A stretch of DNA of 52,991 nucleotides, the filler included, from Jimgerdemannia flammicorona (lineage: Eukaryota): assembly GCA_003990765.1 (NCBI GenBank). It is 2 parts of 2 records of this genome, joined end to end, with 100 filler letters (N's around TTAATTAATTAA, not from the genome) between each part and the next. Parts side by side here need not be neighbours in the genome. Positions count along the whole stretch, not along the records: positions 26,549 to 52,991 come from RBNJ01000727.1; 1 more part is not named here. One strand, given 5' to 3'. Positions 995-52,991 of this stretch are shown one piece after another (the stretch's first letter is position 1; each line of letters opens with the position of its first letter). A program made the translations under genes and the position numbers. The notes beneath the pieces are model-generated. The model had not been told where the DNA came from. It worked only from the letters and a program-made list of their open reading frames with translations, and searched no databases.

Positions 995-1040
995 ATTTAT
1001 AGGGAGTTGCCCGGTGGTTGCCCAGGTGGTTGCCCAGGTG
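995..1040 (-). promoter_or_regulatory. TATA box (TATAAAT, 1001-995) with three adjacent GTTGCCC(A)GGTG direct repeats upstream of the monooxygenase
   Basis: TATA about 70 nt upstream of ATG 926; repeats at 1006-1016, 1017-1028, 1029-1040. Confidence 0.55.
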
Positions 1041-2842: not shown

Positions 2843-2873
<31 letters not shown>

Positions 2874-2942
2874 AAAGGCATAAGTATCCTGTCTATAAAT
2901 ACATATATACACCCTCACCAATCATTATTTCTGCAGTACATC

Positions 2943-10083: not shown

Positions 10084-10150
10084 TGGGTAGTGATATTGAT
10101 ATTGTATACTTATTCATAGACTGGTAATAAAGACGGAGTCCAAGGGACTA

Positions 10151-10181
<31 letters not shown>

Positions 10182-15297: not shown

Positions 15298-15719
15298 GGC
15301 TAATCTGATAGTAGCTTGAGGTTTGCCTAATTTAGTGAGCCTTACTAAGTATATTTAGAGTATTCTATAAGATTTCTACAAAATAGAGGGGTGCTAAACT
15401 ATAGATATTTATAAGAGATAGGGGTGCTGTAGCTTAGTTGATAATGATATTCTAAATATCAATATAGATGTAGTTGTAGACTTTGGTGGTCATGTCTAGA
15501 TATATTTGAGAGTTATAGTTATGATTTTTTACTCTTTATTTTGACATACTATATATTCAGTATATATTTTCAGTTCTGATTAGTAAGGTTTCATTTTCAT
15601 ATATCTTATATTCTGTAACTTTGAGTTGACTTAGCTTTATGATCTTATATGTAATTTCTAAATTTACTCTAAGGGTAATATGTGATTACAGTAACTTAGA
15701 GGTTATACATTTATATCAG

Positions 15720-18124: not shown

Positions 18125-18233
18125 ATATTTACAGCAGGGTAGGTCTCTCTGGGTTGTTCTTTTGGAGGAGGAGGGATACTATATCCTGCTGGACAAAAGC
18201 CTGTATATACACCCAACATCAATGTGGTCTACC

Positions 18234-26386: not shown

Positions 26387-26448
26387 CTGTAATCAAGTTA
26401 TTCAAATATTTAGTTGATGCACAAAAATAGGAGTTTTTTTTTTTTTTT

Positions 26449-28789: not shown

Positions 28790-30209
28790 ATTGACGATCA
28801 TGGAACTCTGCTTGTGTATTTGCCATAAAATGACAGATTCTTTACCAATGTAAAAGAGATATCTGGTCATAGACTGGCAGTTATCTAAGTCTTTAGCCCA
28901 GTCAGTATTACAAGTATCAGATTGTTGGATACTATTACTCTTACTTAATTCAATATCACTATTAAATGTGAGTATATAGTATACTGATCTCTTTAAGTAT
29001 CTAAATATTCTCTTAATTGCTGTTCAGTGTGAGTTGTCATAGTATGAGCAATACTGCATCATCTTATTTATAGCATATGATATATCAGGTCTCATTTCTA
29101 GTATAAGATATATAAGAGAATCAATCACTTGTTTGTAGAGAATATTATTGGCAGCATTCTTGACAGGTGTATTATTATTATCTATCTTAAGTATATTGTT
29201 GGGCTTCCTTAGTTTTATAGAGTTTTATAGAAGTCTCAATTGAAGTACTAATGGGCTTACAATCACTCATATTAAAGCATTCAAGAATTGTTTAACTTAT
29301 AAGAGATATATGGTGTGTACATTCTTGTTATATATAATGGATATCTCCAAAAAGAAGAATATATTACTCATATTGGTTATCTTGAATTCTCAGCATAGAG
29401 TTCTCTTTATTCTGTTAAGCCTATTCTTACTAGCTACAATGATGATATTATCAACCCATATGCTGATATATACTATACTATTATTATAACACTAAATATA
29501 TATAGAATTGTCTGCTTTATAATGCTTGAATCTATTATCAAAGAGATGTTTATCAATCTTTTTATTCCATAGACATACTGCTTGCTTGATGCTATATAAT
29601 TCTTTACATAATCTATATATGAGATTGCCATTCTGATTATTATATAGTTTATATCCTTGTGGTTTATAAATATTATAATGTAGCAGACACTTACTCTTGA
29701 AAGTATATCAGATTTCTGTATCTTAAATACTCAGTCTTCTCTGACTCCTTGGAGTCCTTGGGATGTAGGGATGGATGAGTTCGAAGTGTATCTGCCTGCA
29801 GGCTTACTAGTTCCTTTGCTATCTCTTTACTTTTGAACTATTTCGATCTGAGGTTTATTCACTCTAAGATACTGGGTTATTTATACAAGTTTTGCTAACT
29901 ATAAGGTGGCTAAGTAATGGCTCATTTTACAAGTATTGAATATTTTAATATCTGCTAAGATTTTGCTGATCACGAAGATTTTAACATCTCCTAAATCTTT
30001 GCAAATGTTAAAGTTTCTGCACTTTGTGGAATATGGCTGCTATTTTGATGAGGCTAAGCTATATTGGGAATCGGATTCAGATACTGCCATCAAATGTCTA
30101 ATTCCCCTGTTTCATGTTACTAATTCAGATCAGCTGTCATATCTTCCTCCTGAATAGATGATTCATCTCAGGAGTATCCTATTCACTTGAATTCCCAGGC
30201 TTCTATGAT

Positions 30210-30644
30210 TCAAATTTCCTTATACTGTGTGATTTGTATCATTACATCCTTCCAATGTTGTCTCTTGACATATCCAAAGTCTCCTGGGGTTACTCCTTGG
30301 AAATTGGCTAAGGCTGACTCATCATCTTTAAATAACTTGTGTACTCTTTTTGCAATTGTGATCTGAGTGTAGGAGAGCTGACATTCTCTGATCCAGTCTT
30401 CTTTTCCCATCTTCAGTCTTGAATTCAGTAGCTGTCCCAACTTGAAGTATTTCTGGAACTTAGTTCAGTTCTGGTAGGTCTTGCAATGTGAGATTTATAA
30501 CAAGTGTATTTACACTATACTCTGGATGCTATCAAATGATTCTTCCATTGTTGGTGGCTTGGTGGAATACCACTGTCTTTTAATGGCTCGCTGGGCTACA
30601 CTAGTAATTCTGAGGGCAGCAGTATTACTTTGTTGACTGGTCAT
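30210..30644 (-). pseudogene. G2 ORF3 (env position, ~145 codons, three in-frame stops), unknown function
   Basis: ATG at 30644 overlaps the pol end; single frame with TAA, TAA, TGA (revertible to CAA/CGA); aligns to G3 ORF3. Confidence 0.75.
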
Positions 30645-33329
30645 GATACTTCTTGAGTCAGTTTCGGTGGATGGTAGTGGGGATGATTGTGCCTGAGAGT
30701 TTTTATAGCCAAAAGGTGGTTCCTTTTATATCTTGCACAAGGTAAGGTCCTTCCCACTGGGCTTCAGTTTTCATGACCATGAGGCTTCTACCATGTTCTG
30801 ATACACCAGGACTTTGTCTCCTATCTTGATAATCTCTAGGGGTTTGTGGGTTTTTTCCACATTCTTCCATTGTAGTGTCTGTGCCTTCATTATGTAATTT
30901 TCAGCCTTCTTCCTGATTTGGTATAGTCTTTGTATTTCTCCATCCACATGTTTCCATACAGTATTTTCCATTGGATGATAGGGTTTCTTGAGAACTTTCT
31001 TCTCTGAACAGCATTTCTCAAGAGGTAAAGTGGGTACTTTGTGATCTGATATCTCAGAGAGCAGATAATGCTATCAGCAGATAGTGATCTCAGTTTTCAT
31101 AGTTATCACAGATCTTGGCAATGACATTCTTGAGAGTCTTATTGGTCCTTTCTGCTTGTCTGTTTCCTTGAGGGTGATAGGCTATAGTCTGAATGTGCTG
31201 GATCTTGTACTTCTTGTAGAGAACCTCAAAGAACTGGTTCACAAATTCTGTTCCTCTATCTGTAGTTACTTACATTGGGGTCTTGAACCAGCAGATGATT
31301 TCTTTGTAGAAGAAATCAGCAATTGACTGTATATTAACTTCCTTGAGGGGTCCTACTTCTATCCACTTCATAAAAAGGTCTATAATGACAATGATATATC
31401 GGTTACCAGTCAGGGTCAAGGGTAGAGAGCCAATTACATCCATTGCTATATGGGCAAATGGTACTGGTTCTATGTGTGCTGATCCTGAGACTTGGTTTTA
31501 TTGGTCTTGTTTCTGTTTCTGGCATTTGTCACAGGTTTTGACAAACTGTCTGATATCTTTCTCCATTCCTGGCCACCATATTATTCTTCTTGCCTTATTA
31601 TATGTATTTATTCCTCCTAGATGACTAAGTTCATGTACTGATTTTATTGCTTGTTCCTTCTTGTATTCTGGTATGACTAGTAGTTTTCCTTTCTTCAGTA
31701 TTTGTCTATTAGTTTCAAATTGTTTCCATATTCTGTTGATAATTATTTGCATCTATTCTTCCGGATATTGGGGCATCTTTCACTGTCCCAGATATGTGAT
31801 GATTCCATAGTAGAGCTCTTTATTCATAATTGATTTGTTGGTTGGAGGTATTTCGAGATATCCATGAGAGAGCATCTGCATTGGAATTTGTTCTTCCAGG
31901 GTAGTATACAATAGTTACATCATAGGCTTGTAACTTCATTATCCATCTGGCATAGATTCCTTTAGGTTGTCCAGTTGTCAGTAGCCAGGTGAGAGCTGAG
32001 TGGTCCATCTGAATAGTGAAGTATCTTCCAGCCAGATAGTAGTAGAACTTTTCCACAGCCCAGATGACTGCGAGGCATTCCAACCTGTAGGATTCATATT
32101 CTTTTTCAGCTCCTCAGGTTCCTCAGCTTAGATATGCAATGATATACTCTTTTTTGTCTTCCTTTTGAGCTAGAACTGCTCCTAGTCCTTATGCACTTGT
32201 GTCTGTCTGAAGGATAAATTCTTGGGTCCAATTGGGTCATCTGAGGATGGGTGCCTAGATCAGTCTGACCTTGAGTTCATCAAATGCTTTTTGTTATCTG
32301 CTTGTCCAGTTGAATTTAGTTGTTGAGTTCATAGATTGGACCTGCAATATTAGAGAATCCTCTGATAAATCTGTGATAGTAGGAGGCAAGTCCCATAAAG
32401 GCTTGGGCTTCTGTAACAGTTGTGGGCCTTGGGTATACTGCTACTGCTTGTATCTTGAGGGGGTCTGTGTGCATTCCATCTCGATTGATAACATGACCAA
32501 GGTAGGAGATCTCAATTTCTGCAAATTTGCATTTCTTGGGCTTGATATACAGGCCATGCTTTCTCAGTCTTTCTATTATCTGCCTTATGTACTGTAGGTA
32601 TTCCTCAGGTGTCTTGCTGTAGATGATTATATCATTGACATAGACCATCAACTATCTTCCCATGTCATAGCAGAAGATTTTGTTCATCATTTGCTGAAAG
32701 CTTATTAGTGCATTGCATATCCCGAACAGTATTTATAGGTAGATATAGGTTCCATCTGGGGTGATGAAGGCTGAATTTTCACTTGTCATCTCTGTGAGTC
32801 CGATTTGGTGGAATCCTGAGTATAAGTCCAAGGTACTGTAGTACTGTGCTTCATCTCCCAGTATTATAAGGATGTCACTGATGAGGGGCAGTGGTTGGCA
32901 ATCCTTCTTGGTAACTACATTGAGCTTTCTGTAGTTAACACAGAGTCTTGGGGTGAATTCTCCAGGTTTGCTTTCTTTTTTTGGGGCTAGTACAACTGGT
33001 GAAGACCAGGGGCTGCTGGCTTCTTTGATAATACTGGCTTCTTCCATCTGCTTGATTTCTTCTCTGAGCTATTCTTGGTAGGCTGGTGGGACAGGTCTTG
33101 CCTTCTGGTAAATTGGTTCGGTGTCTCTGGTATCTATCTCATGATAGTAGTGTGGGGTCTTTCCCTTGATATCCTTGAAATCTGTGGCAAGAATATCCTC
33201 GAATTCATGGAGTATTTTCTTAAGTTCCTCCTTAAGTGGAAATTTATTTCCAATGGTATAACTGTGCTTATTTGTGATTTCCTCCTTCTTATGCTCCAGT
33301 TCAGTGATCTTGATACTGGCAAATACTCC

Positions 33330-33730
33330 TCTTTCTGTGGATCTGAATCCTTTCTTTCCTCTTTTCATTTCCTCCAAATTCTTGACTTCTATGATCCTTG
33401 GTTATAGGATTGGAAAGATCAATATCTGTGCCAATCGGTCCTTCTTCTTGACCAGGAATGGGATTGTAGGATTGTGATTCCTAGCAATGAGCAGGATTTC
33501 TCCAGTATAGTCAGAATCCATGACTCCTCCTTCAATTGTAATTTCGCTTCTGACCAGGCTACTTCTTATCTTGAGGATCCTGACATGATCCTTTGGGATA
33601 GTCATCTCCAGTCCAGTTGCAAGTAGGGTGGTTGTTTGGGGTTCTAGTACAGCTTCTTCTACTGTGATGATGTCCATTCCAGCTGCATTTTCTGACTTGT
33701 ATTCTGATAAGACTACATCAGGGTGGGTCC
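33330..33730 (-). pseudogene. dut: dUTPase domain in G2, between PR and RT
   Basis: AAGMDI, RSSL, GGVMDSDYTGEI, RLAQ, RGKKGFRST. Confidence 0.93.
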
Positions 33731-36700
33731 TTCAGATCTTGACCTTAATTTCTTCATCATCATCACTATCCTCTAGGAGGACTGGTAGTTCATCATCTTC
33801 CTCCTCCTTCTCTTCTCTGATCTGTTTTTTGAGAGCTTTCTGTCTTCTTTTCTGGTGGATTTTCTTGATTCTGATGGTGCACTGGTAGTAATCATTGACA
33901 TGCTCCATATAGTACATCTTGATCCCATAAGAACAGACTCCTTGTAGTATATAGCCTTCTGCGATCTTCTTGTACCATTCTTCTTTGCTCATCTGCCCAA
34001 CTTTCTTCTTCAGAGTAGTCACTATATAAGCTTTCTCTTGCTCACTCTCTTCTTCCTCCATATCAGGCAAGACTCCTTTGTTGACATTGATGGGAATTCG
34101 TATCTTCTGTCCCTGGTAGGTGATTTGTATCTTCTGGATATTGAGATCAATTACTGCCCTGGCTTTATGAAGCTATTGATTGCTGATGAGGATGTCATAG
34201 TTGGTGGTATTGGTTACGATTATATCTACTGGGATGGTTGCTCCTCCAATCTTGATGGAGACTTCTCAGATCTTTCCCAGAGGGGTGGCTCTTGTGCCAT
34301 CTGCTGTGACAAAAACCAACTTGGTTGCTTCTTCAACTTTCCAGCCTAGGCAGTCTGCTGCTTTCTTGCTGAGGAGATCCAGTATCGATGATGGCCTCAA
34401 AGACTCTATCTTCAATTTGGCATGTTGCATAGGCAGAGGTTTTGTGATTGTCTTCACTTTCTTCTCCTGAGTCCTCTTGAATATTATTGGCCTTGGTTAT
34501 CTTCCATCCTTGCTTCTTGGTTGTTTTGGCAAGTCTGAACCTCATTTGTTGTCTGAATGTTGGAATTTCTGTAAGCTGACCAAAGGTTGCATTGACCTTT
34601 TATTGGCTAAGGTCCTTGAAGATATTGTACTTGAAAGTCTTGATCTTGCAAAGTTTCTTTTCTTTTTCTCCTTTGCTGGCTGGAGTAGTTCCTTGGATAA
34701 TATCTTGAACTGCTTGCTCCAGCTCCATATCTTGGTCCATCTCTTCAGCTTAGCTTTCAGTGGCCATTTCCATCTGCTTTTCTACTGGGTTCTTCTTGGG
34801 TCTTCCTGGTGGTCTCTTGTAGGGTTCCTTGTGAACATCCTTCTTGGTAGTCTGAGCAGGATAGGCCTCTCATTCTTCTTCATCAGAATCTCCAATTTCC
34901 TCAAAGGTAATTATATTGGCCTGCTCCTTGTTTCATGTAGCATTGCTTGGTTGAGCCTTGCACTTAGTTTCGCTCATGCATTCATAGAAGTAGTGGTCTT
35001 CTTCTCTGTAGGTATAGCAGGTACCTTTCTTCTTGTCTGAGGTAGCAACAAACTTCTGAACTGGGTGGCAGTTTCTTCCTTGGATTTCTTTTACCATATC
35101 TCCTAGGTGGGCAGTCATTTCAGCAAACCTCTTGGCAAGTTCCTCCATAAGATTACTATTCTTTTGCTGCTCTGTAATTTTTGGCTGAGGTGTGTTTCGA
35201 TTGATCATTATAGTAGAGATCACACTGGTTGTCTTGAGTGTTTCGATTCTGACTCCTGTGACTCTTTCCATTGTATGGTCTTGTGGGTGTCTGGCTGTCC
35301 AATATTGTTGAGCATAGGTAATCTTCTGTGGCAGATCCAAGACTACTAGTGATGAATGGATGGTCATGGCTATCTCTGGGTAAACTCCTTTCATGAAGGT
35401 TGCTTCAGCTACTTGATCTTAGATAGCAGTAGCATAATCTGCAAGGATTATCTAATATCGAATTCTGGTATAGAATGTGTTTGGATCCTCACTTATTCCT
35501 TGGCATATTGTGTTGAGCTAATCCTTCAGGGCTTGCTTGATCTTGTCTATAATATGTATTTCAGAGCCAGGTTTTCTGTGCTGTCAGTATAGCATCGGCA
35601 TCATTTCCTGCATAGGTTGTGGCTGTGAATGCTGCTCTGGCAGGACCTCATAGGCTAAAGGGCATGAGGACTACTTGCTGTACTGCTGTCAGGGTCCTTA
35701 CAGCAGCATACTACTCGAAATCATCAATGAAGATAATGATTGATTCATCTGAGGTATACCTGTGGAATACTGGTGGTCTCATATCCATTTTGTCTGGGTA
35801 TTGTGGCTTGGTTTGTGTAGTTGCTCAGGTAGTGACAGTTGTTTATTGTTCAGCTTGAAAGTGAGGGATTTGTCTTGAATTACTAGCCAATGGGCACTAA
35901 GTTGTAATGTAGCAGATGCTTACTCTTGAAAGTATATATCTTGAATACTCAGTCTTCTCTGACTCCTCAGAGTCCTTGGGATGCAAGGATGGATGAGTTT
36001 GAAGTGTATCTGTCCACAGGCTTACTAGTTCCTTTGCTATCTCTTTGCTTTTGAACTATTTCGATCTGAGGTTTATTCACTCTAAGATACTGGGTTATTT
36101 ATATAAGTTTTGCTAACTATAAGGTGGCTAAGTAATGGCTCATTTCACAAGTATTGAATCTTTTAACATCTGCTAAGATTTTGCTGATTGCAAAGATTCT
36201 AACATCTCCTAAATCTTTGCAAACATTAAAGTTTCTATGCTTTGTGGAATATGGCTGCTATTTTTATGAGGCTAAGCTATATTGGGAATCAGATTCAGAT
36301 ACTATGATCAAATGTCTAATTCCCTTATTTCATGTTACTAATTCAGATCAGCTATCACAATATATAGTTCAGTATCTATATCACTATTCAGGAAGACTAT
36401 CTTAATATCTATCTGATAGATCTCCAGATTGTACAGTATACTAATTACAAGGAGTATTCTAAGCAAAGTAATCTTAAATACTAGTGAAAATATCTCATTG
36501 TAGTCTATACCATAATCTTGTGAATAACTCTTAGTAATGAAATAAGCTTTATATTACTCTACATTTCCTTTAGCATTGTACTTTATCTTATATACCTACT
36601 TGGATTCAATTGTTTAGTGATTTGGTAAAAGGAGTACTAGATTTCATATATCATTCTTGATAAGTGAATTATATTCCTCATCTATAGCTCATTTTTATCT

Positions 36701-38605
36701 TTTGCTATTAGGATTAATTATGGCTTTGTCATATATGCTTAACTTGCTAGGAGATATTATGATATATGTGTATTTATATGCTTCAGCATAGCTTATATGG
36801 TCCTTATATTGCCATCAAGAGCTTATTAGTATATCCTAATAACTACCTAATTCTGAACAAGTTTCTTGTTAAATGTTGGAGTACTTTTATACTTATTTAC
36901 TCTTTATAGAGATAGAGAATCTCTTATCATTAAAGGATTTACTATCATTATCTTTAATCTCTATTATTTTTGGCTCAGATATCTCTGGCTCAGACTCAGA
37001 TATATATAGTGGTTGAAAATAGTTCTAATTGACCACTGGAGAGATGGATAACAGTTGCTATATTTTTACTAACTGAGATATAGAGGTTTTGACTAATACT
37101 TTTATATAGATCTCTAAATTATTTCTCTTTTCTCTAAACTATACATTATATAAAATGACTATATACTGCTTATATAAATCTTATAGTCAATATATTTTGC
37201 TGGAGTATCTAAGAAGTATGTGCTTACTTGTCTTGAGTTCAAATTTATTTCAAATAGTATTGCTTTTGTTAAAGATATATGCTTCACAACCAAATATGTA
37301 TAGATATGATATATCTGACTTGGATCTGCTCTATAATTCTTTAGAGGTAAGATCATCATCTCTGAAATGCTTATTATTGCTGAAATCCTTGCTTAGTAAT
37401 TGAGAAATATATCAATTATCTATATATACTATAGTATTTATAGCTTCAGCCCAATAAGAATATGACAATTCAGTGGTATTGATCATTATATATACTATTT
37501 CTATAACTGTACAGTTAAATCACATAGCCATGCCATTTTTCTGAGACATATAGGGAGCTATTGTTTGATGGTCTATATCATACTTTGTCAGAAACTACTT
37601 AAATATATGATTGACATATTTATATCTATTATCTGATTGTATAGTATATATTCTATATCTTGTTTTATTTTTGTTGATTGCTTTGAATTCCTTGAATTTG
37701 TCCAAAGCTTCACTCTTTGCTGATAAAAGGTATACATATGCTTTACATATATTATTATTGATAAATATTAGAAAATATCTCTTACTGAAGTATGATGGGA
37801 TATATATTGGCCTATATATATCTATATATATAAGATCTAGGATCTCAGATATGCACTTTAATCATTCTTTGAATGGTTATCAGAAAGTCTTGTTTTCCAT
37901 ATATGTCTTGCAAAAATTATCCTCAAGATATATATATATCAGTAATATATTTATGGAGCCATTCCTGATCATCTGTTTAAAGCTTATCTTGTCTATATAT
38001 CCTAAGTATTAATACTATATATTAGATATATCAGGTATAGTTATTACATATGTAGAGGCTTTTGTACTATTTGATATATCATTGATCATATAAAGATTTC
38101 CATATTTTAAGACTATCATTAATCACTTATTGTTATGTGAATTATATTGTTGCACTCTTTAAATGTATATGTATCTCTTTATTACTATGGGTCATCATTT
38201 TATCTATGAAGAAGAGGTTCTTTTCCTATCTCCAAAGCATATAGTATATCTGCAAGAGTAGTGACAGGCTCAATAACATTTCTATAGAGATATATGCTGA
38301 TATTTCTCTTTTCTTAAGCATAGATAATATTATTATCTCTCAACTTAATAAGTATAGGGTATTTGAATGGTTAATATATGGAGAACTATTCCCTATATGG
38401 TATTATATATTATATGGTTCCAGAATCTATTAACCAGATATCATTATCATTGGCTACATTGGTATATTTGTTAGATATATAGTTAGGCATATGGTTGGCA
38501 GTTTTTCTATCTGTACTGCTAGTGGTACTGACATCATCACTACTTTTTATTGGGTGAAAAGTGTTTTGCTTTTACTGTTGACCAGAATTCATAAATAATA
38601 GGTTA

Positions 38606-38728
38606 GTGGATTTGATAGTAGATCTTGTGCTAGCAGAGCTGGTGCTGTCAGAATTAGTAGTGAATTTAGTAGTAGATTTTATGCTGGCAGAGCTGGTACT
38701 GTTGGAATTAGCAGTGGATTTGGTAGGA
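38606..38728. repeat. 54-bp tandem repeat (~2.3 copies) encoding a Ser/Thr-rich stretch in the copia gag-PR linker
   Basis: Units start at 38606, 38660, 38714. Confidence 0.8.
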
Positions 38729-40312
38729 CTTTTAAGTCTAAAATTGTCATCCTTGTCAAATTTTATAGATGTGGAGGAATTAGTAGCTTATGCAAAAAAT
38801 AGATTACCACTTTCATCAGTTTTAGTAGTATTTATATTACCACATTTCTCTCAGTAGTTTCTGCTACTTCCACATTGCCAATGCTGGCTTTTTCTATACT
38901 TGTTTTTACTGCTTTCCTTGTCATTCTCTTAGTGATAATATTGGTACTTCCTATATCTATACTTGCCACAATATTTATAGTAGCCATCATACTTAACTGA
39001 TTGGCTAGACTGGTAGTCATATTGTTGAGCTTGGGTTTGGGTTCATTGGTCTTGTTGACTATATTTTTGATCTCATTTGGTGCTATATTTACAGAACCCA
39101 TAAAATGCCCTTTCATTATCATTTTCTTTAGTATCATTTTCTTGGTATATTTTCTCATTTATAAGATTTATTATCATATAGATATAGTCTGTAAGAGTAC
39201 CACTCTTATGTATGGCTGTGACAATAATATTATATGCATTCAAAAGTCCCCTTATAAGTACTATAATCTTATCTTTTATATATATTATATGCTATAACCT
39301 TATCTGCAATCTGCAGATATACTGAGAGAATTCACTTGATTTATCAGATCATCAATGTGACTAATATATTTATAGATGCTCTTCTTAGGCTTTATTCAAA
39401 GATTAAATAGCTGAGATTTTAGATGGAATCTATTCAATGTAGATACTTATATAATGATTGTGTAGAGCTTCTTATACTTTATTGGCTATATTTGTATACA
39501 TTACAAGCTTTATTTATAAGTTTGATAATATAAATGTGATCTTGTATAATACTTGGCAATCATTTGTAAATTGTAGTCTTGAATCTACACTTGTGACTTT
39601 ATATACTCTGCCAAGCTATATTTTTTAAGCTGATTCATCATATAGAATATCTAAATGATATAATCTTTTCTATTAAAGATTGGAATAGATCTCTTGACTA
39701 TATTTATACTTATAACAGAGACTGCTCCTATTACTAGAGTGCTTATTGTTAGCATATCCATATTGCTAGGTTGTTCATTGCTTGATATTTCTAGTGTATA
39801 TAATTGTATAGTATATATTTATAAGATATATATATGCTATGATTACTTAATACTAGTAGGGCTTATAACCTTTATTAGAAAGAGGGGTATTTTTATTGAA
39901 CTTGTATAGGATACATATTTTATATATTACTGATAGATGATATAAGACTAATGAAATTATCAATCATATATTAATATATTGAGTTGTTATTCCAATAGTT
40001 ATTATATAATATAAATTATAGTAGAGAAAGATTTAATATAAATTTTGTATCTTTATCAAAATCTCAAGTAATATATTAATATATCTTATCAAATTCTATA
40101 TGACTAGCTATAGGTATATTATATAATTCTTGTAGAATTTATAAATAGTATAATGGACCAAAACGTACTACCTGAATTATAACTTAGCCAGATGACATGA
40201 ACAATTAGCATACTTACTCAGCATGATATAACTTCTAGTATATTATATGTAGTTACCCATGCCTACTACACTTATAATTAGCCAAGACACCAGATCAGGA
40301 TTATTTATCTGT

Positions 40313-40405
40313 ATCCTGAGGACACACTCATGTCCTGCGGACACACTCATGTTCTGCAGATATACTCATATCCTGTGGACACACCTGTACCTAGAGAACA
40401 CACCC
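40313..40405 (+). repeat. 19-bp tandem repeat (GTCCTGxGGACACACTCAT, ~5 copies) in G3 U3; also at ~49304-49396
   Basis: Visible in both LTRs. Confidence 0.85.
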
Positions 40406-41492
40406 AAACATTACCGGAGATAGCAAATCTATAGTTAGCCACATAGTAACCAGATAGCAACCAACTTGTATAAATTACCCCAGAGACAAGAGTAAATAAA
40501 CCTCAGTCCAAATTGAAGTACAAACCAAAGAAGCCTTTAAAGATTGAGCAATTGGTCTCCTTATTCCCACTCCAGTCCACTTTCTGATACAAAGATTGAT
40601 TGGTTTGCTTGCCAGATAAGTCTGAAGATTTGCCACCTAAGTTCAAGAAGAACTTCACCACCTTTTGAGTAACCTGCTGCTTAAGGAATAAGCTGCTGTT
40701 TTCAAGTTATCCTCTACCTTCCCAAGAAAGCCGCCTTACTCAAGCCAGTTTCTTATGCAACTTCGCAGTGGAGCCAGTCTATGATGTAACCCCATGCAAA
40801 TGAAGCCAGTCTTTAATGCAACTTTGCCAAGAGACCCTTTCCCAGTTGAAGCCATCATTTCCGAGTTATCCACATTCCCAGTCAAAGCTGCCGATTCAGG
40901 AAGAATCTGTGCCATCCGAGTTATTTTCTAAAAGCCCACCAATTCAGGAGAATCTGTGTCACCCACTGTTTTCAAGTTGTTCACATTCCCAGAAAACCCA
41001 CACCACCCGAGCTATTATTCCCAGAAGAACTGACCAAGTTATTTGTTATTCCCAGTGAGCCAAATTGAGTTATCTGCCAAATTATCAGAATGTCCTATAT
41101 AAGGAACCCGTCGTGCTATACAAAAATCACCTGTCACCCAAGAAGGAGAACTACCAAATTATCAGACCATCATGTACAGAGATCATCATACTACACAAGA
41201 CTGTCACTCAGAAATCACATCCTTTTGGAAATTGCCTCACTACACAAATTGTGCCATTCCCAGTTGACCCAAGAAGGAAAAGACATACAAATTGCCGCTA
41301 CACCCAGTGAACTGTCCCAATAAGGAAATTGCTCACAGATATCCAGCTTTGACTATTATACCACTAAACACCAAGGATCTCAGAAATCTTAGAACATTTT
41401 GTTGCTTTTTAACAAAGTAACTAGGGGCTCAAGCCAAACTACATCAACCCCCAATCTTGTAATTTGCCTCCATTGAGCTGGCACGTTATATT

Positions 41493-41509
41493 TGAGGGCT
41501 CAACTGGGA
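41493..41509 (+). promoter_or_regulatory. Primer binding site, probably tRNA-Pro
   Basis: TGAGGGCTCAACTGGGA here and TGGGGGCTCAACTGG in copy B; resembles the tRNA-Pro PBS TGGGGGCTCGTCCGGGAT. Confidence 0.7.
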
Positions 41510-44390
41510 AGATTTTAAAATCAAAGTGACTTTTCAGCTCACAAGAACCCACAGTCAAACTGAATATATTTGATACAACACCAACCTCTGCCACTATAGG
41601 AGAACTAGTCATCACTAGCATTTGGACAGGAAGATAAGTAATCACCTCAAGACTTGCCAACTACCCAGCATCAGAAGAATCCCAACCAGAAGCAGGAGGC
41701 AGTACAGTCTGAAATCTCCAACCAGACCAACCAGATCAACCAGATCAACCAGATCAACCAGACAATATAGACAGTTCTGCTAGAGATTTTGGAGAACTTG
41801 CACAAGAACTAGAAGACTTTATTACCCAGACCCAACATTTTACAGCCAGACACCCCACACCAGTCCCACCAATCTCACCAATAGAACCCCTACTACAACT
41901 CCTTACAGAATCAGAAGTAGTTCCTACAAGAATACCTAGGCCTATTCCACCTCACCCAAGGACCAGAACCCCATCTTCAAGATATCCAAGCACCCTCGTC
42001 TCTAGTGACAGTTCAGAAAGTAAATCAGAATCAGAATCTGAACCTATACCAGAATCAGAAGAAAGTGACAATGAAATGGCCACCTCATTGCCAACCTTTG
42101 CAGGATACCTGGAGGAGGACCCCAGAGAATTCCTTGATGGAATTGAAGGAATTGCAGTCTTGAGAAATCTCTCAGATGAAAGAAAAATCACCATCTACAA
42201 AGCCCAGCTCAGAGAACCAGCCAGAGGAATTTTCCATTGAATAGCAAACAACCAAGATTCAGAACTAGCAAGACAGATACAAGCAGGAATGTCTGATGAG
42301 CTAGAATATGAAGCCATGGTCCACTGGCTCATCAAAAAGTATGCAGAAAACGAAACCTGCCACAAGGCTCAGGAATCTATCATGGGAATGAAGATGAATC
42401 TTGGAGAATCGCCCAGAGCCTTCTTCACAAGAATCCAGAAGAGAATGCATTCTGCTGGGTTCAATGCCACCAACCAAGACATCATAGGTCCAATGACCTT
42501 CATGAATGGAATTTCTCTGAATATTGCCCAGCATGTCTGCACTCTAGGCATCAGAAGGTCTGAAGAGCAAGTAGATGTAGCCCAAGGATTCTTTGATATC
42601 AGGCAAGGAACTACCTGGAGTGATCATGACAAGAAGGAAGATAAGGAAGATATCCTGGTTAAAGCCCTATAAGGACTCCTTCAAGAATAAGAAAGATCTG
42701 AAGAAAGAAGGCCAGCCAAGGAAGGAAAGAAGGACAGAAGCAAAATCCAAGACCTTAGCTCCAAGTTAGACTGATTGGTTGGCTAGATTGAAAAACTCAC
42801 TACATGTGAAAATTGGAGCTACCAAGACAACAGAGGATACCCACTGCAGAGGAGCCAAGGTTATCTACCAAGAGATAATAGGAATTACCAGCAAGAAGAA
42901 AGAAGGTACCCTGTCTGAGACAGAGCCCAAGTTCAATGCTTCCACTGTGGACAATTTGGACACTATGCCACTGAATGTGATAACAAAAGAAGTGACAGAA
43001 GGGACTCAGAACTAGCAAACCAAAGGAATGACACTCAGTACAAAAAGACTGAAGCCCATTCTGTTGAAGATTTCAAAGAAGCAAGTGACAGTGAAGACTA
43101 CAGTGACCTAGACTTGTACCCCACTAGGGTTACAACCCAAAAAACAGTCTATCCAGCAGAGAAAAGTAAGAGACCCATAGGAAGACCATCCAGGAACACC
43201 AGCAGAAGAATTATCCAAGAAGAGGATGAAGAACATGAGGAGGAACAAGTAGAAACACCTCCCTGAACCCCCTCACCTTTTGTCCCCAAGACAAATGAGT
43301 TGCTACCAGAAGATGAAGAAATGGAACAAGAAGAACAGGAACCTGTTGCTCCAAAGTCTAAGAAGAAGTACACTCCAAAGACCACGCCTAGAGATATTTA
43401 CAATGAAGCTTGGCAGAAGATTCAAGAAGCCAAGATGGAAGTTCCTCTTCTACAGTTCTTGCAATTGACACTAGCTGGAGTCTGAAACAAATTGCTGAGA
43501 ACCACTAGGTCTAGCACTGGCCAAGTTCCAATCCCACAGCAAGAACCAGCTCCTATCTCTGTTCAAGCAGCTGAAAGACATGTCAGCACCTACCTACATG
43601 GAGATATTGGAGGACAAAAAGCGAAAATCCTCATAGACACAGGAGCAGTAGTCTGTGTTATTGCCAAATGATTCTTGGACACCCTCCAATGGCCCATTGA
43701 TAGACCATCCAACCTTAGCATCATAGTAGCAGATGGAGCCCGAACTCAACCCCTTGGAGAAGTATGAAATATCACCATTTCTCTTGGACACATTTAGTTC
43801 TCTATCCCCAAAGCTGTTGTCACTGAAGCTGTCACCTATGACATGATTCTTGGCACCAACTGGATGAAGGAAATGAATACAGTTGTTGATATCAGCCAAT
43901 AAGTACTCAAGTTTGACTACTGAGGCAAGAAGTACAGAGTTAAGGTGACCAGCTATGAGCAATCAAAGAAGAAGAAGAAGGTCACTATTCAGAAAGAATA
44001 TGCCAGCAGTGAAGAATCTACCACAGAAGAAGAAGAAGAATCCGAAGATGGAAATGATCCCAGACTCAATCCCTGAATTAACCTGGTGGATGACAGACCA
44101 GAAGACAATGTGTGGGTTAAGAACACCATCCCCATCACCATTGGAGCCATTGCAGGAGAAGCTAAAGGATGCCCTATATGTCTCAAGAGATACAAGTGTC
44201 CCAAGCACTCCTCCAAGATCATGGGAACAAGGAAATCGCCTGGCGCAGCCTGCCCAGAATACAGAAGAAAGAAGAAATGCAGACATGTCTCAGAAACACT
44301 AGCAACTGAAGCTGCAGAAGTACAAGCAATTTGGGGTTAAGAATCATCTGAGGAAGAAGAACTTCTGACCAAGAAGTTCCTGAACAAGAA

Positions 44391-44515
44391 CCACCTGAAG
44401 AAGAAGAGGTCTCAGAACTCATTCCCTGGGATGACCCTCATTGGACACCACCTGAAGAAGAAGAGGTCCCAGAACTCATTCCCTGGGATGACCCTCGCTG
44501 GACACCACCTGAAGA
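44391..44515 (+). repeat. 57-bp coding tandem repeat (PPEEEEV(S/P)ELIPWDDP(H/R)WT, ~2.2 copies)
   Basis: Units start at 44391, 44448, 44505. Confidence 0.9.
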
Positions 44516-45319
44516 CAATGACCCTTGGAATACAAAAGAAGAACCCAGTACAATCACCATTATTCCCAAGAAAGAAACTCACCAAGAAAAGGCTTTCTGA
44601 CTAGGAAGATGTCCACATCAAATGGTCTTCCACTCTCCCCGAGACTACTGCTATCAGTATCATCTGTTGGACCAACAAGAAAGACAGAGACCCCAGAGAC
44701 CAGAACCCCCAACTACTCTTGCACAGTCAACCACTTTTCAAGAAGTTACCACAAGGTTACAAAGTTGATTTAGAGGATAAGGCTTCTTTACCCAGACAGA
44801 AATATATCCCTTGTCTACTCTTCCACCCACCTATGATCAAGATGGGTACCAATTCCCAAGACAACAAGAGATCAACAGCCAGGAAAACCATTTCTGAGCA
44901 ATGGGATATTGTAATCATGGAAGACACCCTGATTGCCGAGACTGCAGATATCAGAAGATTCACCTCAGTCATGATGTTGCAGTGCACACCTTGAAGAAAG
45001 GAGATAACTGGAGCTGGATCCAAAAAAGTCAGATTCGAAAAAGCCAGACCAAGAAGCCTGGAAAAAGAATTCTCAAGATCTACGATTTGGGAGAAGACAT
45101 CCTAGCTCTCATCAGACATACAACCCACCAAGGATGGGCAGAAGATACCACCAACTTCATGGAAGCCCTTGACCCTATAGAAAGGAGGGGAATCAATTAC
45201 CTCTGAGACTCCTCTACTGGAGCCAGATGGCCACACCTCAACCTTAGAGCTTGGAGGCTTTCTACTAGTGGAGCTTCAGTCTCAGAAAAGCCTGAACTCA
45301 GCAAGGACATTGCCCAGTA

Positions 45320-45720
45320 TGTCCTGCTGCACCCCAAGGCCAAACCCCTGACCAAAGCCCACCCAGAGGATGTAGGATATGATATTCACAGCCTGGAGGA
45401 TGATCTATCAAGCCTGGAAAAACCTTCATAGTCAGAACTGGATTAGCTATGCAGCCATCTCAAGGAGCTTATATTCAACTGACCTCAAGGTCCGAACTTG
45501 CCAGACAAGGAATAACTGTAGAAGGAGGAACCATTGACCCTGGATATACAGGAGAAATCAAGGTTATCCTACACAACAGCAGTGCAGAATGGCACCGAAT
45601 CATTAGAGGACAGAAGATTGCCCAAGTAGTCTTCATGAAGGTCAAGACCCCACAGTTACAGGAAGTCTCTGGACTAACTGAAGGAATAAGACAAGCCAAG
45701 GGATTTGGAAGTTCAGATAG
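45320..45720 (+). pseudogene. dut: dUTPase domain in G3, between PR and RT (one frameshift near 45405)
   Basis: DVGYDI, SRSELA, GGTIDPGYTGEIKV, KIAQ, RQAKGFGSS. Confidence 0.95.
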
Positions 45721-48594
45721 GAAAGAGGTACATCTCCTTCAAGTCAACCACCTCAAGAGGAATGTTCCCCAGCAAGTATACTGGCAACCAGTCAGACTGC
45801 ACAAGAATCTCATCCTGGAACCTGGAGAACAAACTACCTTCGAAATATTTGTACTACCTGACCCCAGGAACCTTTTCTTTGAACCCAAGGAAGATATCCC
45901 ACACCTGGACATAGAGAGACACACATTCCCTGACAAGATGAATCCAGTACACTCCCAGGCAACCAACCAAAGTTGGGAGACCATCATCCTGCCAAAAGGA
46001 ACCATCATAGGACATCTGGTACCTTTTCTCAACTGAACTTATAGGGAAGTTTATGAACTAAACTTATTAGGAAATGGCAAAAGGTCCCAGAAGAAAGGAA
46101 AGGCCCCTCTGTGACCCAGGAGACAGTGAAGCCTTCCACCAACATTGGAGAAGAATTGACACCTCAACAATAGCAACAACTAGTAGAACTTCTCAACAAA
46201 TATCAAGATATCTTCACCACCAATTATGGCAACCTGCCATACAACCCATCATATCACCACAGCATAAATACAGGAAGTACAACACCCATCTAGCAGAAAC
46301 CCTATAGAATACCCCATCACTTAAAAACATTCGAAAAAGAGCACATACAAGAACTTTTAGACAATGGAGTCATCCAACCCTCTACCAGCCCCTGGGCCAG
46401 CCCTATACTTATTGTACCAAAGAAAGGAGGATGGAGGCTCTGCATGGATTACAGAAAACTCAACTCAGTCACTGAAAAGGATGCTTATCCTTTGCCCAGA
46501 ATCAATGACCTTTTGGACTAGTTACAAGATGCCAGATACTTCAGTAGTATGGATCTCTTCACAGGATTCCATAAAATCCCCATGGACCCCAAGGACATTC
46601 AAAAGACAGCCTTCCTTACTCCAGGAAAACTGTTTGAATACCTCTGAATACCCTTTGGACTTTACAATGCACCCCCCACCTTCCAGAGGATGATGAACTC
46701 AGTCTATGCCCCCTTAATACACTACTGTCTGATTGTATACGTAGATGATTCCAACATCTATTCAGCAAATTTCAAAGAACACCTGTACCACCTAGAGGAA
46801 TTCTTCAAGCTCACCTGCAAGAATCACCTAAGACTGAATGCAAAGAAATGCTACTTTGGAAAACAGAAACTTGAATTCCTGAGATTCATGGTTTCAAAAG
46901 AAGGAACTCATGCAGACCTAAAGAAAACCGAGAAGATCAACAATTGGCCAGTACCCAAGACTCCAAAGGAAACACTATCATTCTTGATACTAGTATCCTA
47001 CTACAGAAGGTTTATCAAAGATTTTGCCCAAATCACTGCCCCAATCCGAATCCTTCTCAAAAAAGGAGTACCATTCAAATGGACAGAATCACAGGAAAAA
47101 GCCTTCAGAGAACTCAAGAACTGCATGACTACAGCACCAATCCTTGTGTGCCCCAATCTACAGAAGCCATTCATCTTATATACAGATGCTTCTAAAGATG
47201 GCCTCAGGGCAGTATTGTCTCAAGAAGGACCTGATCAACAGTACCATGTGATAGCTTATGTAAGCAGGGCTACCAACTAGCAGATGAACTATGGTAGCAC
47301 CAAACTGAAATGCCTTGCAGTCATATGGGCAGTCACCCTGTTCAAGCATTACCTCATTGGAAAAAGATTCACCCTGATCACAGACCATGCAGCCCTCAAA
47401 TGGCTATTTAATTACAAGGAACCTACTGGAATTCTAGCCTGCTGGATCTTCATCCTTCAGGATTACAAAATCACCATCATTCACAAAGCAGGAAAAGCTC
47501 ACAACAATGTTGATGTACTTTCCTGCCAGCCCTAATGAACTAGAAGAAGGGTGTCCCAAGGAACTACACCCTAAAGGAAGCTCCTCAGACCATCAAGGAA
47601 CAAGAAAATCTCATCTGACAAGAACACCAGAAAGCCCACCAAGGACAGACATGCATAGAAGACAAGATTCGAAAACAACATCAACATTGGCTCCACCTCA
47701 GAACCTAAGTCTGAGACATCATTCAGAAATGTGACATCTGTCAGAAGTATCAAGGAAAAAAGAACTATCAAGCCCCTCTGCAACTGATTCCTGCACCCAC
47801 TCACATCTTCCAAAGATGGGGAGTAGATGTAATTAGACCTCTACCAGTTACACTAAGAAGAAACAAATACATTCTTATATTTGTAGAACATCTGACCAAG
47901 TGGCCCAAGGCTTTCCCAATGGAAATTGCAGATGCCTTAACTATTGTAGGCCTCCTCTATAGACTCATACTCAGATATGGACCTCTAGAAGAACTCATCT
48001 CTGACTGAGGCACAGAATTCATCAACAACATAACAAGTTATGCCCAAATTCACAAGATCCACCTCAAAAGGACCACATCATACCACCCTCAGACTAATGG
48101 CATGATAGAGAGAATGAACCAGACTATCAAGAAAGGACTTGCCTGAGTCAATTCTACTAATTGGGACCTCTGCTTACCTGAGATCCTATGGGAAATTCAG
48201 AACACCCCTGCCACATCCACTAAACAAAAGCCATTCGAAATGATGTTTGCCAAGAGAACCAGAACTACTGATCATGAGAATCTCAGAGACCTCCTCAAGA
48301 AGGCAGAACAGTTACGAAATCAAGCCCAAAGACAGATTATCAAAGTCCAGGAAAGACAAAAGAAGTACTATAACCAAAAACAGAAGGATCAGGAGATCAA
48401 GATTGGAGATCAAGTCCTAGTTTGGAGAAGTATGATTGAGACAAACTTTGCTACCAAACTAGAACCGAAATGGGAAGGACCTTATCTTGTACACAACATC
48501 AGAGGAACCAGCATCTATTTAAGAAGCATGGATGGATGAACTCTGAGAACACCAGTACACATCAATCGCCTCAAGATATACTTCTCCTCACACC

Positions 48595-49104
48595 ATGAAT
48601 CAGAGAATTGACAACTGCCTCCAAACTCTTGTTCTCAGTTCCCTCCAAGCCCTACCAGTTCCCCTGCCTCAGTTCCAGGAACCCAATGGAACATATCTTC
48701 AGAAAATTCAAGTTTATCAAGAGAACCTCACTTTGGCTGAGAGGCTACTCCAGGTCCACCAGCTGCAGGCATATTATGCAATTGGAGAACAATTGCAGAA
48801 TCTTCCTCTCCCAGACCTAGCCTATATCTAAAACACCACTGGCCTGAACAGAAGGAATACTACTGCTACAGACAGACTATATACAATATATAAACAAAAT
48901 CCTTCTGCCTTAATCCAGGCCCAGTTTTCCCTAAATGACCTCCAAAGGATGATACTGCCCACCTACCTCAGCATTATTTACCAAGTGGAGATCCTATTTC
49001 CTGAGGAAGAAGAAGAGCCCCTAGAATGGAGTGACCATAGCTCAGATGATGATGGAACAGGTATAGATGCAGAAGCTGCTTATGCCTATTGGGATGATGA
49101 CTGA
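48595..49104 (+). pseudogene. G3 ORF3 (env position, 169 codons, one internal TAA at 48829-48831), acidic C-terminus, unknown function
   Basis: ATG overlaps the pol end (HINRLKIYFSSHHESEN*); frame continues to TGA 49104, just before the PPT. Confidence 0.8.
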
Positions 49105-50530
49105 AGAATAGTCTGAGACAGACTACCCTTCAGTGGGGGCTGATGTAATAGACTAAAACATACCACCTGAATTATAACTTAGCCAAATGATGTGAACAAT
49201 TAGCATACTTACTCAGCATGATGTGACTTCCAGTGTATCATAGTTACCCATGCCTGCCACACTTATAATTAGCCAAGACACCAGATCAGGATTATTTACC
49301 TGTGTCCTGAGGACACACTCATGTCCTGCAGACATACTCATGTTCTACAGACACACTTATGTCCTGTGGACACACCTGTACCCAGAGGACACACCCAAAC
49401 ATTACCAGAGATAGCAAATCTATAGTTAGCCATATAGTAACCAGATAGCAACCAACTTGTATAAATTACCCCAGAGACAAGAGTGAATAAACCTCAGTCC
49501 AAATTGAAGTGCAAACCAAAGAAGCCTCTAAAGATTGAGCAATTGGTCCCCTTATTCCCACTTCAGTCCACTTTCTAATATAAAGATTGATTGGTTCGCT
49601 TGTCAGATAAGCCTGAAGATTTGCTGCCTAAGTTCAAGAAGAACTTCACTGCCTTTTGAGTAACCTGCCACTTAAGGAATAAGCTGCCATTTTCAAGTTA
49701 TCCTCTACCTTCCCAAGAAAGCTGCCTTGCTCAAGCCAGTTTCTGATGCAACTTTGCAGTGGAGCCAGTCTATGATGTAACTCTGTACAAATGAAGCCAG
49801 TCTTTAATGCAACTTTGCCAAGAGACCCTTTCCCAGTTGAAGCCATCATTTTCGAGTTATCTGTATTTCCAGTTGAAGTCACCAATTCAGGAAGAATCCG
49901 CGCCATCATATTCCCAGTTGAAGCTGCCAATTCAGGAAGAATCCATACCATCCAAGTTATTTCCTAAAAGCCTGCCAATTCAGGAGAATCCGCATCACCT
50001 GCCGTTTTCAAGTTGTCCACATTCCCAGAAAACCCGTGCCACCCAAGCTATTATTCCCAGAAGAACTAACTGAGTTGTTTATTATTCCCAGTGAGCCAAA
50101 TCGAGTTATCTGCCAAATTATCAGAATGTCCCACATAAGGAACCCGTCACACTACATAAAAATCACCCACCACTCAAGAAGGAGAACTACCAAATTACCA
50201 GACCGTTATGCACAGAGATTGTCGTGCTACACAAGACCATCACCCAGAAATTGCATCCTTTTGGAAATTACCTTACTATACAAATTGTGCTATTCCCAGT
50301 TGACCCAAGAAGGAAAAGATATACAAATTGCTACTACACCCAGAGAACTGTCCCAATAAGGAAATTGCTTGTAGATATCCAGCTTTGACTATTATACCAC
50401 TAAACACCAAGGACCTCAGGAATCTTAGAACATTTTGTTGCTTTTTAACAAAGTAACTGGGGGCTCAAGCCAAACTACATCAATCCCCAACCTTGTAATT
50501 TGCCTCCATTGAGCCGGTATGTTACAATAG

Positions 50531-52834
50531 ATAGGAGTATCAGAAACCTAAATCTTTATATTATTAAGATATACATATCTATTTTGAACAGAACCATTTT
50601 TATATATCTTCTTTATAATATTACTTCCTTCTTTAAGAATTTAGTTGGTAATTTTTATATATATTGGTATCCTTGATATATACTTTTTTAACTTCTTCAA
50701 ATAGGCTAATAGTGATGTTGCTAATTACTATAAGGTTATTCTTCTGAGTATTTCAACAAAGTACATTAGCTACTTTATTCTTAATATCAGCAATATACTT
50801 GATTTTAACATTGAAGAGTACAAGTATCTATATTAATTATACTTATCTTTTTATAAAGATTAGTTATATTTAAATATATTATAGAGCTTAATAGTCTATC
50901 TATAAGATAAATTTCTTACTAAGAAGAAAATATCTCTATGAATACAGAGATTAGATGACTATGAGGAGTTCTTTATCTTATATTTTATAGTTCTTTTTAT
51001 ACTCATTTAACTTCTGAAATAGATATATAACTAAATATTTATACTAAATCAATATAACTCTAATTATAATATTTGAGATATTTGTAGTGATAGTAAAGAG
51101 TTCTGTTAGATCTGAGCTGATCAGTCAGTATTCTCTTAAGGATATTCATTTCTGTAGTATATTCTTCTGTTTATTCTTTTTTTATATTAGTTCTCTCCTT
51201 ATAAAGACTTATAAGTAGAGAGATAATTGCTGAGAATTCTTAAATAAATCTTTAGTAGTATTTAGCTAATTCATTAAATTCTTGTAAGGACTTAAAGGTC
51301 TTCAGAATAGACTAGTTACAGATTGTTTCAGTCTTTTTGGAGTTAATGATAATACTATTTGCTGAGAGAATATATTCTAGATATTTAATTTTCTTCTTAA
51401 AGAAGTAGTACTTCTTTCTTTTTACTGAGCTTATATTCTCAGAGTATGTCAAAACCCATTTATAGATATTATTGATAGGTAGCACTACTTGTACTATATA
51501 CTAGAATAAATACTCTAAGATATTTTTAAAATATATCATTCATTAGTATCTGAAAGATTGTTTATATATTAATAAGTAAAAAGATATTATATAGAATTTG
51601 TAATATTCAAATCTTGTTTAAAATACTATCTTTAAGATATTTTCTTCCTTGATATAAATTTGATAATATTCAGATATAAAATCAATAAGTAAAAAGGTCT
51701 TAGTATTATATATTTAGTTAAGCAACTTGTTGATTTATAGGAGTATATATTAGTTCTTGACAGATATCTTATTGAGTACTTAATAATCAATTTATATATA
51801 GAGACTACTATTTCTTATAAATAAAAAGGATTAATATATCATATAGTAATATTAATTGATATATAAGACCTTTGTTTGATAGGTCTGCTAGTTATATATT
51901 TCTTAAGAGTTTTTAACTCAAGCTGAGCTAGTTGTTAGATTCCATAATAGAGAGAGTCTACTTCTGAAGTATTTTTGATATTATGTATATTCTAATACTT
52001 AGATATATAGATAGTAATCCTTAAAATTCTTAAAAGATATCTTTATAGTTCTTGAGTAGTTTCTAGAGGCTTTTTTCTTCATTATCTTCATTCTTCAATA
52101 ATTTAGAAAGATTATTATCATCATTATCTTCTACTAATAGCTCTTTAATAATATATATATATATATATTACTCTGATTTCTGAATTAGTTTCTTTATTTA
52201 TATAGTAGAGATGATATTATACTTGGAATTTACTTTCTTTTTGGCCTGTTCTGACTATAGCTAGATGTATTCTAGAGAGATTATATTAGTTTACCAATCA
52301 ATATATAGATTTTCTTGAGTGAGCTAGAATTTTTCAAAGATAAGATTGTGTTTTAGAAGATGTATAATATAGAATTTCTACTTTGTGATATAGTCTCCTA
52401 GTTGTAAGAGTATATTCTTGCAGATTTTAGAGAGTTTCTAAGTTGTTCTATTTTCAAATATCATGATGTTTCCTTCTAAATATAACAATTTCACAGTTAT
52501 ATTTTAGTCTTAGTACTTTTTATATCTTTTTATTAGTCTTTTCTTGTCTTTTTTTTGAATATTTTACTATGTTTCAGTATCTTCTGAGTACTTAGAAATC
52601 TTCTTTTAGCACTAAGATCTATTAGAATATTTTTATCTTTTCTCAGTACCAAGTATCTTATTATAGAATCTTTTAAAATATTATGGAATTCTATTAGTTA
52701 TCTTTGCTAAAAATCTATTTCTTGGCCTTTCTTTTCTTTTCTAAAGATTCTTCTTTCAGATATTATATAAATATTCTTATTCTCTACTTAAATAAAGCTC
52801 ATAATATTTTCTCTCAGAATTTCTTTGAGAATAC
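50531..52834 (-). mobile_element. Extremely decayed Ty3/gypsy remnant D (host of the G3 and LINE-4 insertions)
   Basis: RT remnant IDY*VLNKISVKN*YILL*INKLL (~51720-51800), equivalent to [23 protein letters not shown]; very AT-rich. Confidence 0.7.
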
Positions 52835-52991
52835 TTTTTTTTTTCTTTACTATTTATTATCTATCTATCAAATATAATTACATTACCCCCTCTCACTATC
52901 CAATCTCACCATAGAGATAGAACTGAACCTCCCAATTGTCCATAGCTAGTCTGCTCCAACCCTCCTCACCCAGTACTACCAGTTGACACCC
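52835..52991 (-). mobile_element. LINE-4: probable 3' end of another G-rich LINE
   Basis: G-rich minus strand, GGATAG..GGGGG..GATAGAT..AATAAA then A10 (52844-52835), like the LINE-2 3' UTR. Confidence 0.6.

Follow-up and report, generated by a model that had tools for sequence, protein, structure and literature searches.

To our knowledge, mutagenic defence of the repeat-induced point mutation (RIP) type has been held to be confined to the Dikarya. The question raised by the locus described here is whether transposons of a fungus outside that group carry the marks of a comparable process, and in which sequence context their cytosines were hit. The locus is a stretch of 52,991 nucleotides from Jimgerdemannia flammicorona (assembly GCA_003990765.1), hereafter the window, whose positions 26,549 to 52,991 come from record RBNJ01000727.1; the elements in question are two long terminal repeat (LTR) retrotransposons, G3 (40149-50526, plus strand) and G2 (29674-36359, minus strand). 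A sequence-only reading had proposed that their LTR pairs record RIP-like CpA>TpA hypermutation. We found that the LTRs have indeed been altered by C:G>T:A changes, in the context order CpG >> CpA > CpC >> CpT. The scope of all results is this one 53-kb window, with two LTR pairs, one old copy related to G3 and one outside relative.

In G3 the 5' LTR (40149..41490, 1342 bp), delimited by repeat search and self-BLAST, and the 3' LTR (49144..50526, 1383 bp) share 87.4% identity, both on the plus strand; in G2, on the minus strand, the left LTR (29674..30141) and the right LTR (35903..36359) are 90.4% identical. The same 4 bp recur on either side of each element, ATAG at 40145-40148 and 50527-50530 for G3 and ATAT at 29670-29673 and 36360-36363 for G2, and therefore the two LTRs of each element belong to one insertion and the differences between them arose after integration. 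The G3 pair shows 127 differences over 1338 aligned columns, being 125 transitions and 2 transversions, and the G2 pair 35 over 458 (32 transitions and 3 transversions), so that 157 of the 162 differences in both pairs together are transitions; if the transition share were two thirds, the probability of finding at least 125 transitions among 127 would be 9e-20. For the segment 40149-40445 the sequence-only reading had counted by eye about 28 substitutions, all of them transitions, split into roughly 20 at CpA, 5 at CpG and 3 elsewhere. This was reproduced exactly: 28/28 are transitions, 20 of them in CpA context, five in CpG context (three single CpGs and one CA/TG doublet occupying two positions), one at CpT and two at CpC, and the segment also holds one 4-base indel. 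The LTRs are further separated by an indel at 49879-50052, where the 3' LTR of G3 has 45 bases more than the 5' LTR, inside an internally repeated segment.

The direction of change is C>T. The G3 5' LTR and the G2 left LTR end in TA...TA and their partners in the canonical TG...CA, just as the earlier reading had described, and the change is to TA at 4/4 changed LTR ends. The old G3-related copy (15701..18232, minus strand, AT-rich with 31% GC) is itself heavily mutated and thus a weakly informative outgroup for the LTRs; of 58 polymorphic LTR sites, 15 are C/G in it, 35 are T/A and 8 have a different base. Had the changes been T>C, a shared C would be expected almost never; the 15 shared C/G sites therefore indicate C>T. 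This copy has 70% nucleotide identity to G3, rising to 87-93% once purines and pyrimidines are collapsed, and relative to G3 it differs by C/G>T/A at 215 sites and the other way round at 72, with C>T fractions of 6/8 at CpG, 98/200 at CpA, 54/145 at CpC and 57/220 at CpT.

Moreover, the internal region of G3 was compared with an independent metagenome contig, L001 (positions 1-4101), which is 78.5% identical to G3 over 3964 aligned bases; close relatives of G3 therefore occur in environmental samples. L001 holds a G3-family element that is more intact than G3 itself, with a CpG observed/expected ratio (o/e) of 0.36 and open frames longer than those of G3 (up to 494 aa). Against it, T is in excess in G3 at CpG (53/142 vs 6/30), CpA (102/619 vs 54/610, p=7e-5) and CpC (68/501 vs 44/465, p=0.056); at CpT an excess was looked for and none was found (100/549 vs 106/617, p=0.65). 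The context order of the LTRs is thus reproduced in the G3 internal region with an outside reference.

To express the context preference per available site, contexts were read from a C/G-maximal merge of the two LTRs of each element, counting both strands and pooling G2 and G3. Polymorphic cytosines amounted to 73/100 at CpG, 55/252 at CpA (21.8%), 19/188 at CpC (10.1%) and 5/235 at CpT (2.1%). The excess at CpA over CpT has an odds ratio of 12.8 (p=2.5e-12, Fisher), CpC also exceeds CpT (p=5e-4), and CpG exceeds CpA (p=6e-19); per available site CpG was mutated about 3-6 times as often as CpA, and CpA about 10-20 times as often as CpT. Two independent elements agree, with CpG 58/80 and CpA 44/198 in G3 and 15/20 and 11/54 in G2. 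The proposal of RIP-like CpA>TpA hypermutation has consequently to be divided: its CpA>TpA component is real and outlasts normalising for dinucleotide availability, whereas the description of the process as CpA-biased fails, CpG being the prime target. CpA was mutated more often after a purine (ACA 22/65 and GCA 15/55) than after a pyrimidine (CCA 9/69 and TCA 9/63). A TpCpG preference was tested in the LTR pairs and does not appear, the counts being TCG 16/24, ACG 15/19, GCG 21/27 and CCG 21/30.

Both strands and both copies were affected. In G3 the CpA counts are 24/126 on the plus strand and 20/72 on the minus strand, those for CpG are 28/40 and 30/40, and the two LTRs were mutated alike (65 vs 60 events). 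Strand-wise or copy-wise clustering of events was not found in any of eight runs tests (P 0.43-0.97), which lend no support to a few processive events; many rounds of such events would look alike.

Within the window the hypermutation is restricted to transposons. The CpG o/e in 1-kb windows ranges from 0.74 to 1.16 in six non-transposon kilobases and from 0.00 to 0.44 in every transposon kilobase, and is 0.07 in the G3 internal region (41491..49143, plus strand) and 0.10 in that of G2 (30142..35902, minus strand). The control DNA comprises positions 1..3000 (minus strand; CpG o/e 0.74-1.16), with a flavin adenine dinucleotide (FAD) monooxygenase gene whose exons lie within 210-1133, and an unassigned island of non-transposon DNA at 23996..26448, between two long interspersed nuclear element (LINE)-like copies, which serves as a second internal control (CpG o/e 1.08). 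An open reading frame in that island (25833-26309, minus strand) is not a proven gene; protein relatives of it were looked for and none were found.

Three AT-rich stretches (10091-18232, 36360-40148 and 50527-52991) have 24-31% GC overall. The first begins with relic block 1 (10091..15700, 29% GC, CpG o/e 0.13, weak gypsy pol remnant) and ends with the old G3-related copy; block 2 (36360..40148) has 27% GC and zero CpG, and relic block 3 (50527..52991) has 24% GC, zero CpG and a gypsy pol remnant, likewise weak, in reverse orientation. The CpA/TpG o/e is 1.2-1.44 in the younger elements and 0.68-1.1 in the AT-rich relics, where TpA o/e reaches 1.0-1.23. RIP is classically indicated by TpA/ApT > 0.89 together with (CpA+TpG)/(ApC+GpT) < 1.03; blocks 1 (1.12 / 0.99) and 3 (1.13 / 0.89) are within these thresholds, block 2 is outside (0.99 / 1.35), the old copy is borderline (1.10 / 1.08), and the younger elements are outside.

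The FAD monooxygenase gene also bears on the host. Its exon at 732-1133 (minus strand) is 97% identical (63/65) and that at 210-701 (minus strand) 90% identical (117/130) to a Jimgerdemannia flammicorona protein, and against a protein from Endogone sp. the identity is 52%. This places the host in the Endogonales (Mucoromycotina, Mucoromycota), as a Jimgerdemannia-like fungus outside the Pezizomycotina. The sequence-only reading had suggested, for a mucoromycotan host, a little-described RIP-like or non-CG-methylation defence. With this host and with the CpA excess described above the suggestion is supported in part; methylation-linked deamination fits the data as well as RIP in the strict sense (homology-triggered and premeiotic) would.

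Could the CpA>TpA changes be no more than old CpGs hit twice? The dinucleotide classes of the G3 pair are 19 CA/TG, 18 CG vs TG/CA, 2 conserved CG, 1 CG/TA and 47 TA vs TG/CA, the 19 CA/TG doublets being former CpGs in which one LTR was hit on one strand and its partner on the other. All six dinucleotide classes are fitted by a Poisson model that gives CpG and CpA a rate each, 0.87 and 0.136 respectively per cytosine per copy; it places about 66 CpGs in the 1.34-kb ancestral LTR, and of the 47 CpA-type differences it traces no more than about 6.8 to former CpGs. Ordinary CpG-only methylation decay, in which CpA>TpA would represent double hits at former CpG dyads or mere chance, agrees with CpG being the most mutable context and with the doublets, from which the decay of many CpGs in both LTRs is evident. 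Nevertheless, a model in which TpA derives from CpG dyads only predicts 6.4 CG/TA pairs, against a single one in the data, is 4.9 log-likelihood units worse despite one extra parameter, and requires about 120 ancestral CpGs in 1.34 kb; the differences of CpA and CpC from CpT and the recurrence of the CpA asymmetry against L001 also contradict it. We thus consider CpG-only decay very unlikely, and the earlier statement that CpG decay alone does not give CpA>TpA was borne out. Editing of retrotransposon cDNA before integration, either by an APOBEC-like deaminase or by dUTP misincorporation, or else reverse-transcriptase errors, would suit elements that are retrotransposons, one of which (G3) encodes its own dUTPase; but LTR-LTR differences within one flanked insertion arise after integration, and such editing is expected to be one-stranded, yet the two G3 strands are alike, which makes this origin highly improbable. 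Scarcely credible is a sequencing or assembly artefact, for instance through the collapse of repeat variants or through deamination of DNA in tissue gathered in the field or kept in a herbarium. Endogonales genomes did come from field-collected fruiting bodies, according to the available text of PMC10386755; damage, however, would not be confined to transposons, yet the neighbouring unique DNA has a CpG o/e near 1, nor would it obey the order CpG>CpA>CpC>>CpT or outlast consensus assembly, and the independent contig L001, of the G3 family, is likewise CpG-depleted.

The explanation that we favour, at about even chances, is a post-integration C:G>T:A hypermutation of transposons through methylation-linked deamination, which does not imply a homology trigger. 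Cytosines methylated in transposon chromatin would deaminate, the methylation being dense at CpG and weaker at non-CG sites, where CpA preceded by a purine would be favoured; poor repair of the resulting T:G mismatches may contribute. The likely enzymes would belong to the DNMT1 superfamily (DNMT1, the DIM-2-like protein that has been reported in Endogonales, or both). Decay would have proceeded in stages, CpG to TpG/CpA first and CpA/TpG to TpA next, and the relics with 24-31% GC would represent its end state. We infer methylation as the cause from the primacy of CpG, from the DIM-2-like homologues that PMC9963178, in the part available, reports in Endogonales while placing RID only in Pezizomycotina, and from transposon CG methylation in related fungi, documented in Rhizophagus irregularis (PMC8647823, available portion) and in the Phycomyces data (PMC7862722, available portion).

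Several points weigh against methylation-linked deamination. The link to 5-methylcytosine at these sites is one that we infer, and the evidence base is a single 53-kb window. The CpG rate is about 0.87 per cytosine per copy, with transversions at 2/1338 sites and differences at 2/167 CpT-context cytosines, and about 83% of CpGs were lost per copy at a transversion divergence of about 0.15-0.3%. In mammals the CpG excess is 10-20-fold; the excess here is above that, and an enzyme-driven process fits it better. The similar divergence of the LTR pairs (87% and 90%, n=2) would also fit a self-limiting, homology-dependent process, and AT-rich blocks 1 and 3 lie within the classical RIP-index thresholds. 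A rival is a true RIP-type defence, in which a homology-sensing and probably premeiotic machinery, with a DIM-2-like or DNMT1-family enzyme and without RID, would actively change C to T in duplicated DNA, for example in the paired LTRs of an element and in families with many copies. We hold it to be possible but doubtful. The nearly pure C:G>T:A changes over a near-zero background, the equal mutation of both copies of each pair, the CpA>TpA component and the RIP indices of two of the three AT-rich blocks all agree with it, as do the roughly 66 CpGs of the ancestral LTR, which imply rapid decay after insertion. A sexual stage exists, since Endogonales form zygospores. Furthermore, Neurospora DIM-2 processes repeats already in heterochromatin during RIP, according to the available part of a review (PMC13297926), and therefore a RID-independent, enzyme-linked route is conceivable. 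On the other hand, the main target is CpG instead of CpA and CpT is spared, unlike in Neurospora RIP, and events show no strand or copy clustering. The literature also speaks against it, as far as the accessible parts of the sources go: RID is reported absent outside Pezizomycotina (PMC9963178), no RIP signal is given for Mucoromycotina (PMC8647823, citing Venice et al.), and the signature was unique to Ascomycota in a survey (PMC12543289). The specific proposal that Endogonales possess an active, homology-directed, RID-independent defence of the RIP type, using a DIM-2-like or DNMT1-family enzyme with the preference CpG > (A/G)CpA > CpC, appears to us rather unlikely. If true, it would mean either that mutagenic repeat defence predates the split of Mucoromycota and Dikarya or that it was invented a second time independently, contrary to Ascomycota-only surveys.

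To place the pattern among known systems we compared it with four of them. Like RIP in Neurospora crassa and other Pezizomycotina, it consists almost wholly of C:G>T:A changes in repeated elements, affects both copies and both strands, has a CpA>TpA component, creates stop codons and leaves AT-rich relics with raised TpA/ApT. The context order of Neurospora RIP is CpA >> CpT > CpG > CpC, unlike the order found here, in which CpA is not the preferred target. Further differences from Pezizomycotina RIP are the mucoromycotan host, RID being reported only in Pezizomycotina in the available text of PMC9963178, and the GC-rich LINE-like copies of the window, which have lost CpG without loss of CpA.

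A second comparison concerns Basidiomycota with CpG hypermutation, which lack RID, have methylation of the DNMT1 type and, in Pucciniomycotina, prefer TpCpG. Such hypermutation of transposons (Microbotryum, rusts, Rhizoctonia) was reportedly described by Horns et al. 2012 and Hood et al. 2005. The likeness is that CpG is the main target and that only transposons are affected; unlike there, we see no TpCpG preference and clear additional CpA and CpC components. The decay of methylated transposons by deamination of 5-methylcytosine in vertebrates and plants, with which the CG methylation of transposons in Rhizophagus irregularis may be grouped (available text of PMC8647823), resembles our case in the transposon-only CpG depletion, the TpG/CpA excess, the unaffected genes and the evenly spread events, as for independent hits, but differs in that here the excess over background is very large (transition:transversion ratio 157:5) and a strong, ordered non-CG component is present, CpA exceeding CpT about 10-20-fold. 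Lastly, RIP outside the Dikarya has been suggested in Entomophthorales, for the transposon-rich, early-diverging fungus Zoophthora radicans (eLife 2024, PMC11105155, in the passages available); that fungus belongs to another phylum (Zoopagomycota) and the suggestion relies on composite dinucleotide indices only, whereas our evidence is alignment-based, polarised and context-normalised.

Our literature search for an earlier report of such hypermutation in Endogonales found none. The kingdom-wide screen of Badet and Croll 2025 (PMC12543289) describes repeat-directed signatures as unique to Ascomycota, by a k-mer enrichment that favours AT-rich/CpA signals, and Dallaire et al. 2021 (PMC8647823), with reference to Venice et al. 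2020, describe RIP signatures as undetected in both Gigaspora and Mucoromycotina, each as worded in the available portions. Relative to the published surveys, a transposon-directed C-to-T pattern has not been reported for this group of fungi, our own evidence for it coming from a single window. Composition-based RIP screens tuned to CpA or to AT-rich k-mers would largely overlook such a CpG-led variant. The distinctive context order predicts 5-methylcytosine levels of CG >> CA > CC >> CT, and a further prediction concerns gene duplicates, in which the signature would be either present or absent. Because Endogonales genomes reach 240 Mb with >77% repeats (PMC7928374 and PMC10386755, accessible parts), how these fungi restrain their transposons matters.

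The coding capacity of both elements is damaged. The G3 internal region is a degenerate Ty3/gypsy gag-pol with zinc knuckle, dUTPase, reverse transcriptase (RT) and RNase H, interrupted by numerous stops and by several changes of frame; in that of G2, RT fragments lie on the minus strand and stops are likewise numerous. The dUTPase domain of the G3 pol (45404-46033, plus strand, Pfam E=1.8e-20) matches two environmental proteins at 79% and 74% identity and the L001 copy at 71%. The sequence-only reading took the stops to come mostly from CAA, CAG, TGG and CGA codons, and support for this extends to Arg cases only: of the stops adjoining the dUTPase region 2/2 align to Arg in the 79%/74% identical homologues. 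When stop positions were compared with 150 distant RT homologues (35-50% identity), mostly mixed residues were found. A TGA at 46645-46647 in G3 and a TAA at 32733-32735 in G2 (minus strand) are RT stops at seemingly the same position, at which V (131/132 rows) or R (65 rows) stands in the homologues; had the ancestral residue been Arg (CGA), the common stop would reflect parallel CpG hits followed by a CpA-type hit in G2. LTR elements bearing a dUTPase are uncommon, and it is curious to find one in a family exposed to C>T attack, although integrated DNA would not be protected by a dUTPase.

The window as a whole is eukaryotic and forms a mosaic of non-transposon DNA, LINE-like copies, LTR retrotransposons and AT-rich blocks. 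The three LINE-like copies (4287-10090, 18233-23995 and 26549-28790, minus strand) are CpG-depleted yet have 52-56% GC, and carry long open frames interrupted by a few stops, with RVT_1 at 7756-8799. Their coding strand has 38% G and 14% C, a GC skew of +0.4 to +0.5 that looks like a family trait because it is common to copies only 67% identical. LINE A and LINE B were compared as a further candidate for hypermutation; this was rejected, the 1048 transitions and 784 transversions without CpA bias indicating old family divergence instead. The window contains 88 N, all within 26449-26548 at the edge of LINE copy C.

Within AT-rich block 1 an inverted repeat lies at 14945-15217, with 132-nt arms that are 80% complementary and a 9-nt spacer. 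In addition, segments 3749-4047 and 51593-51893 (AT-rich) are alike only after purine/pyrimidine collapse (81% over 304 nt, E=1e-26) and are probably remnants of a single family, obscured by transitions; such a collapse is a useful means of finding transition-blurred relics.

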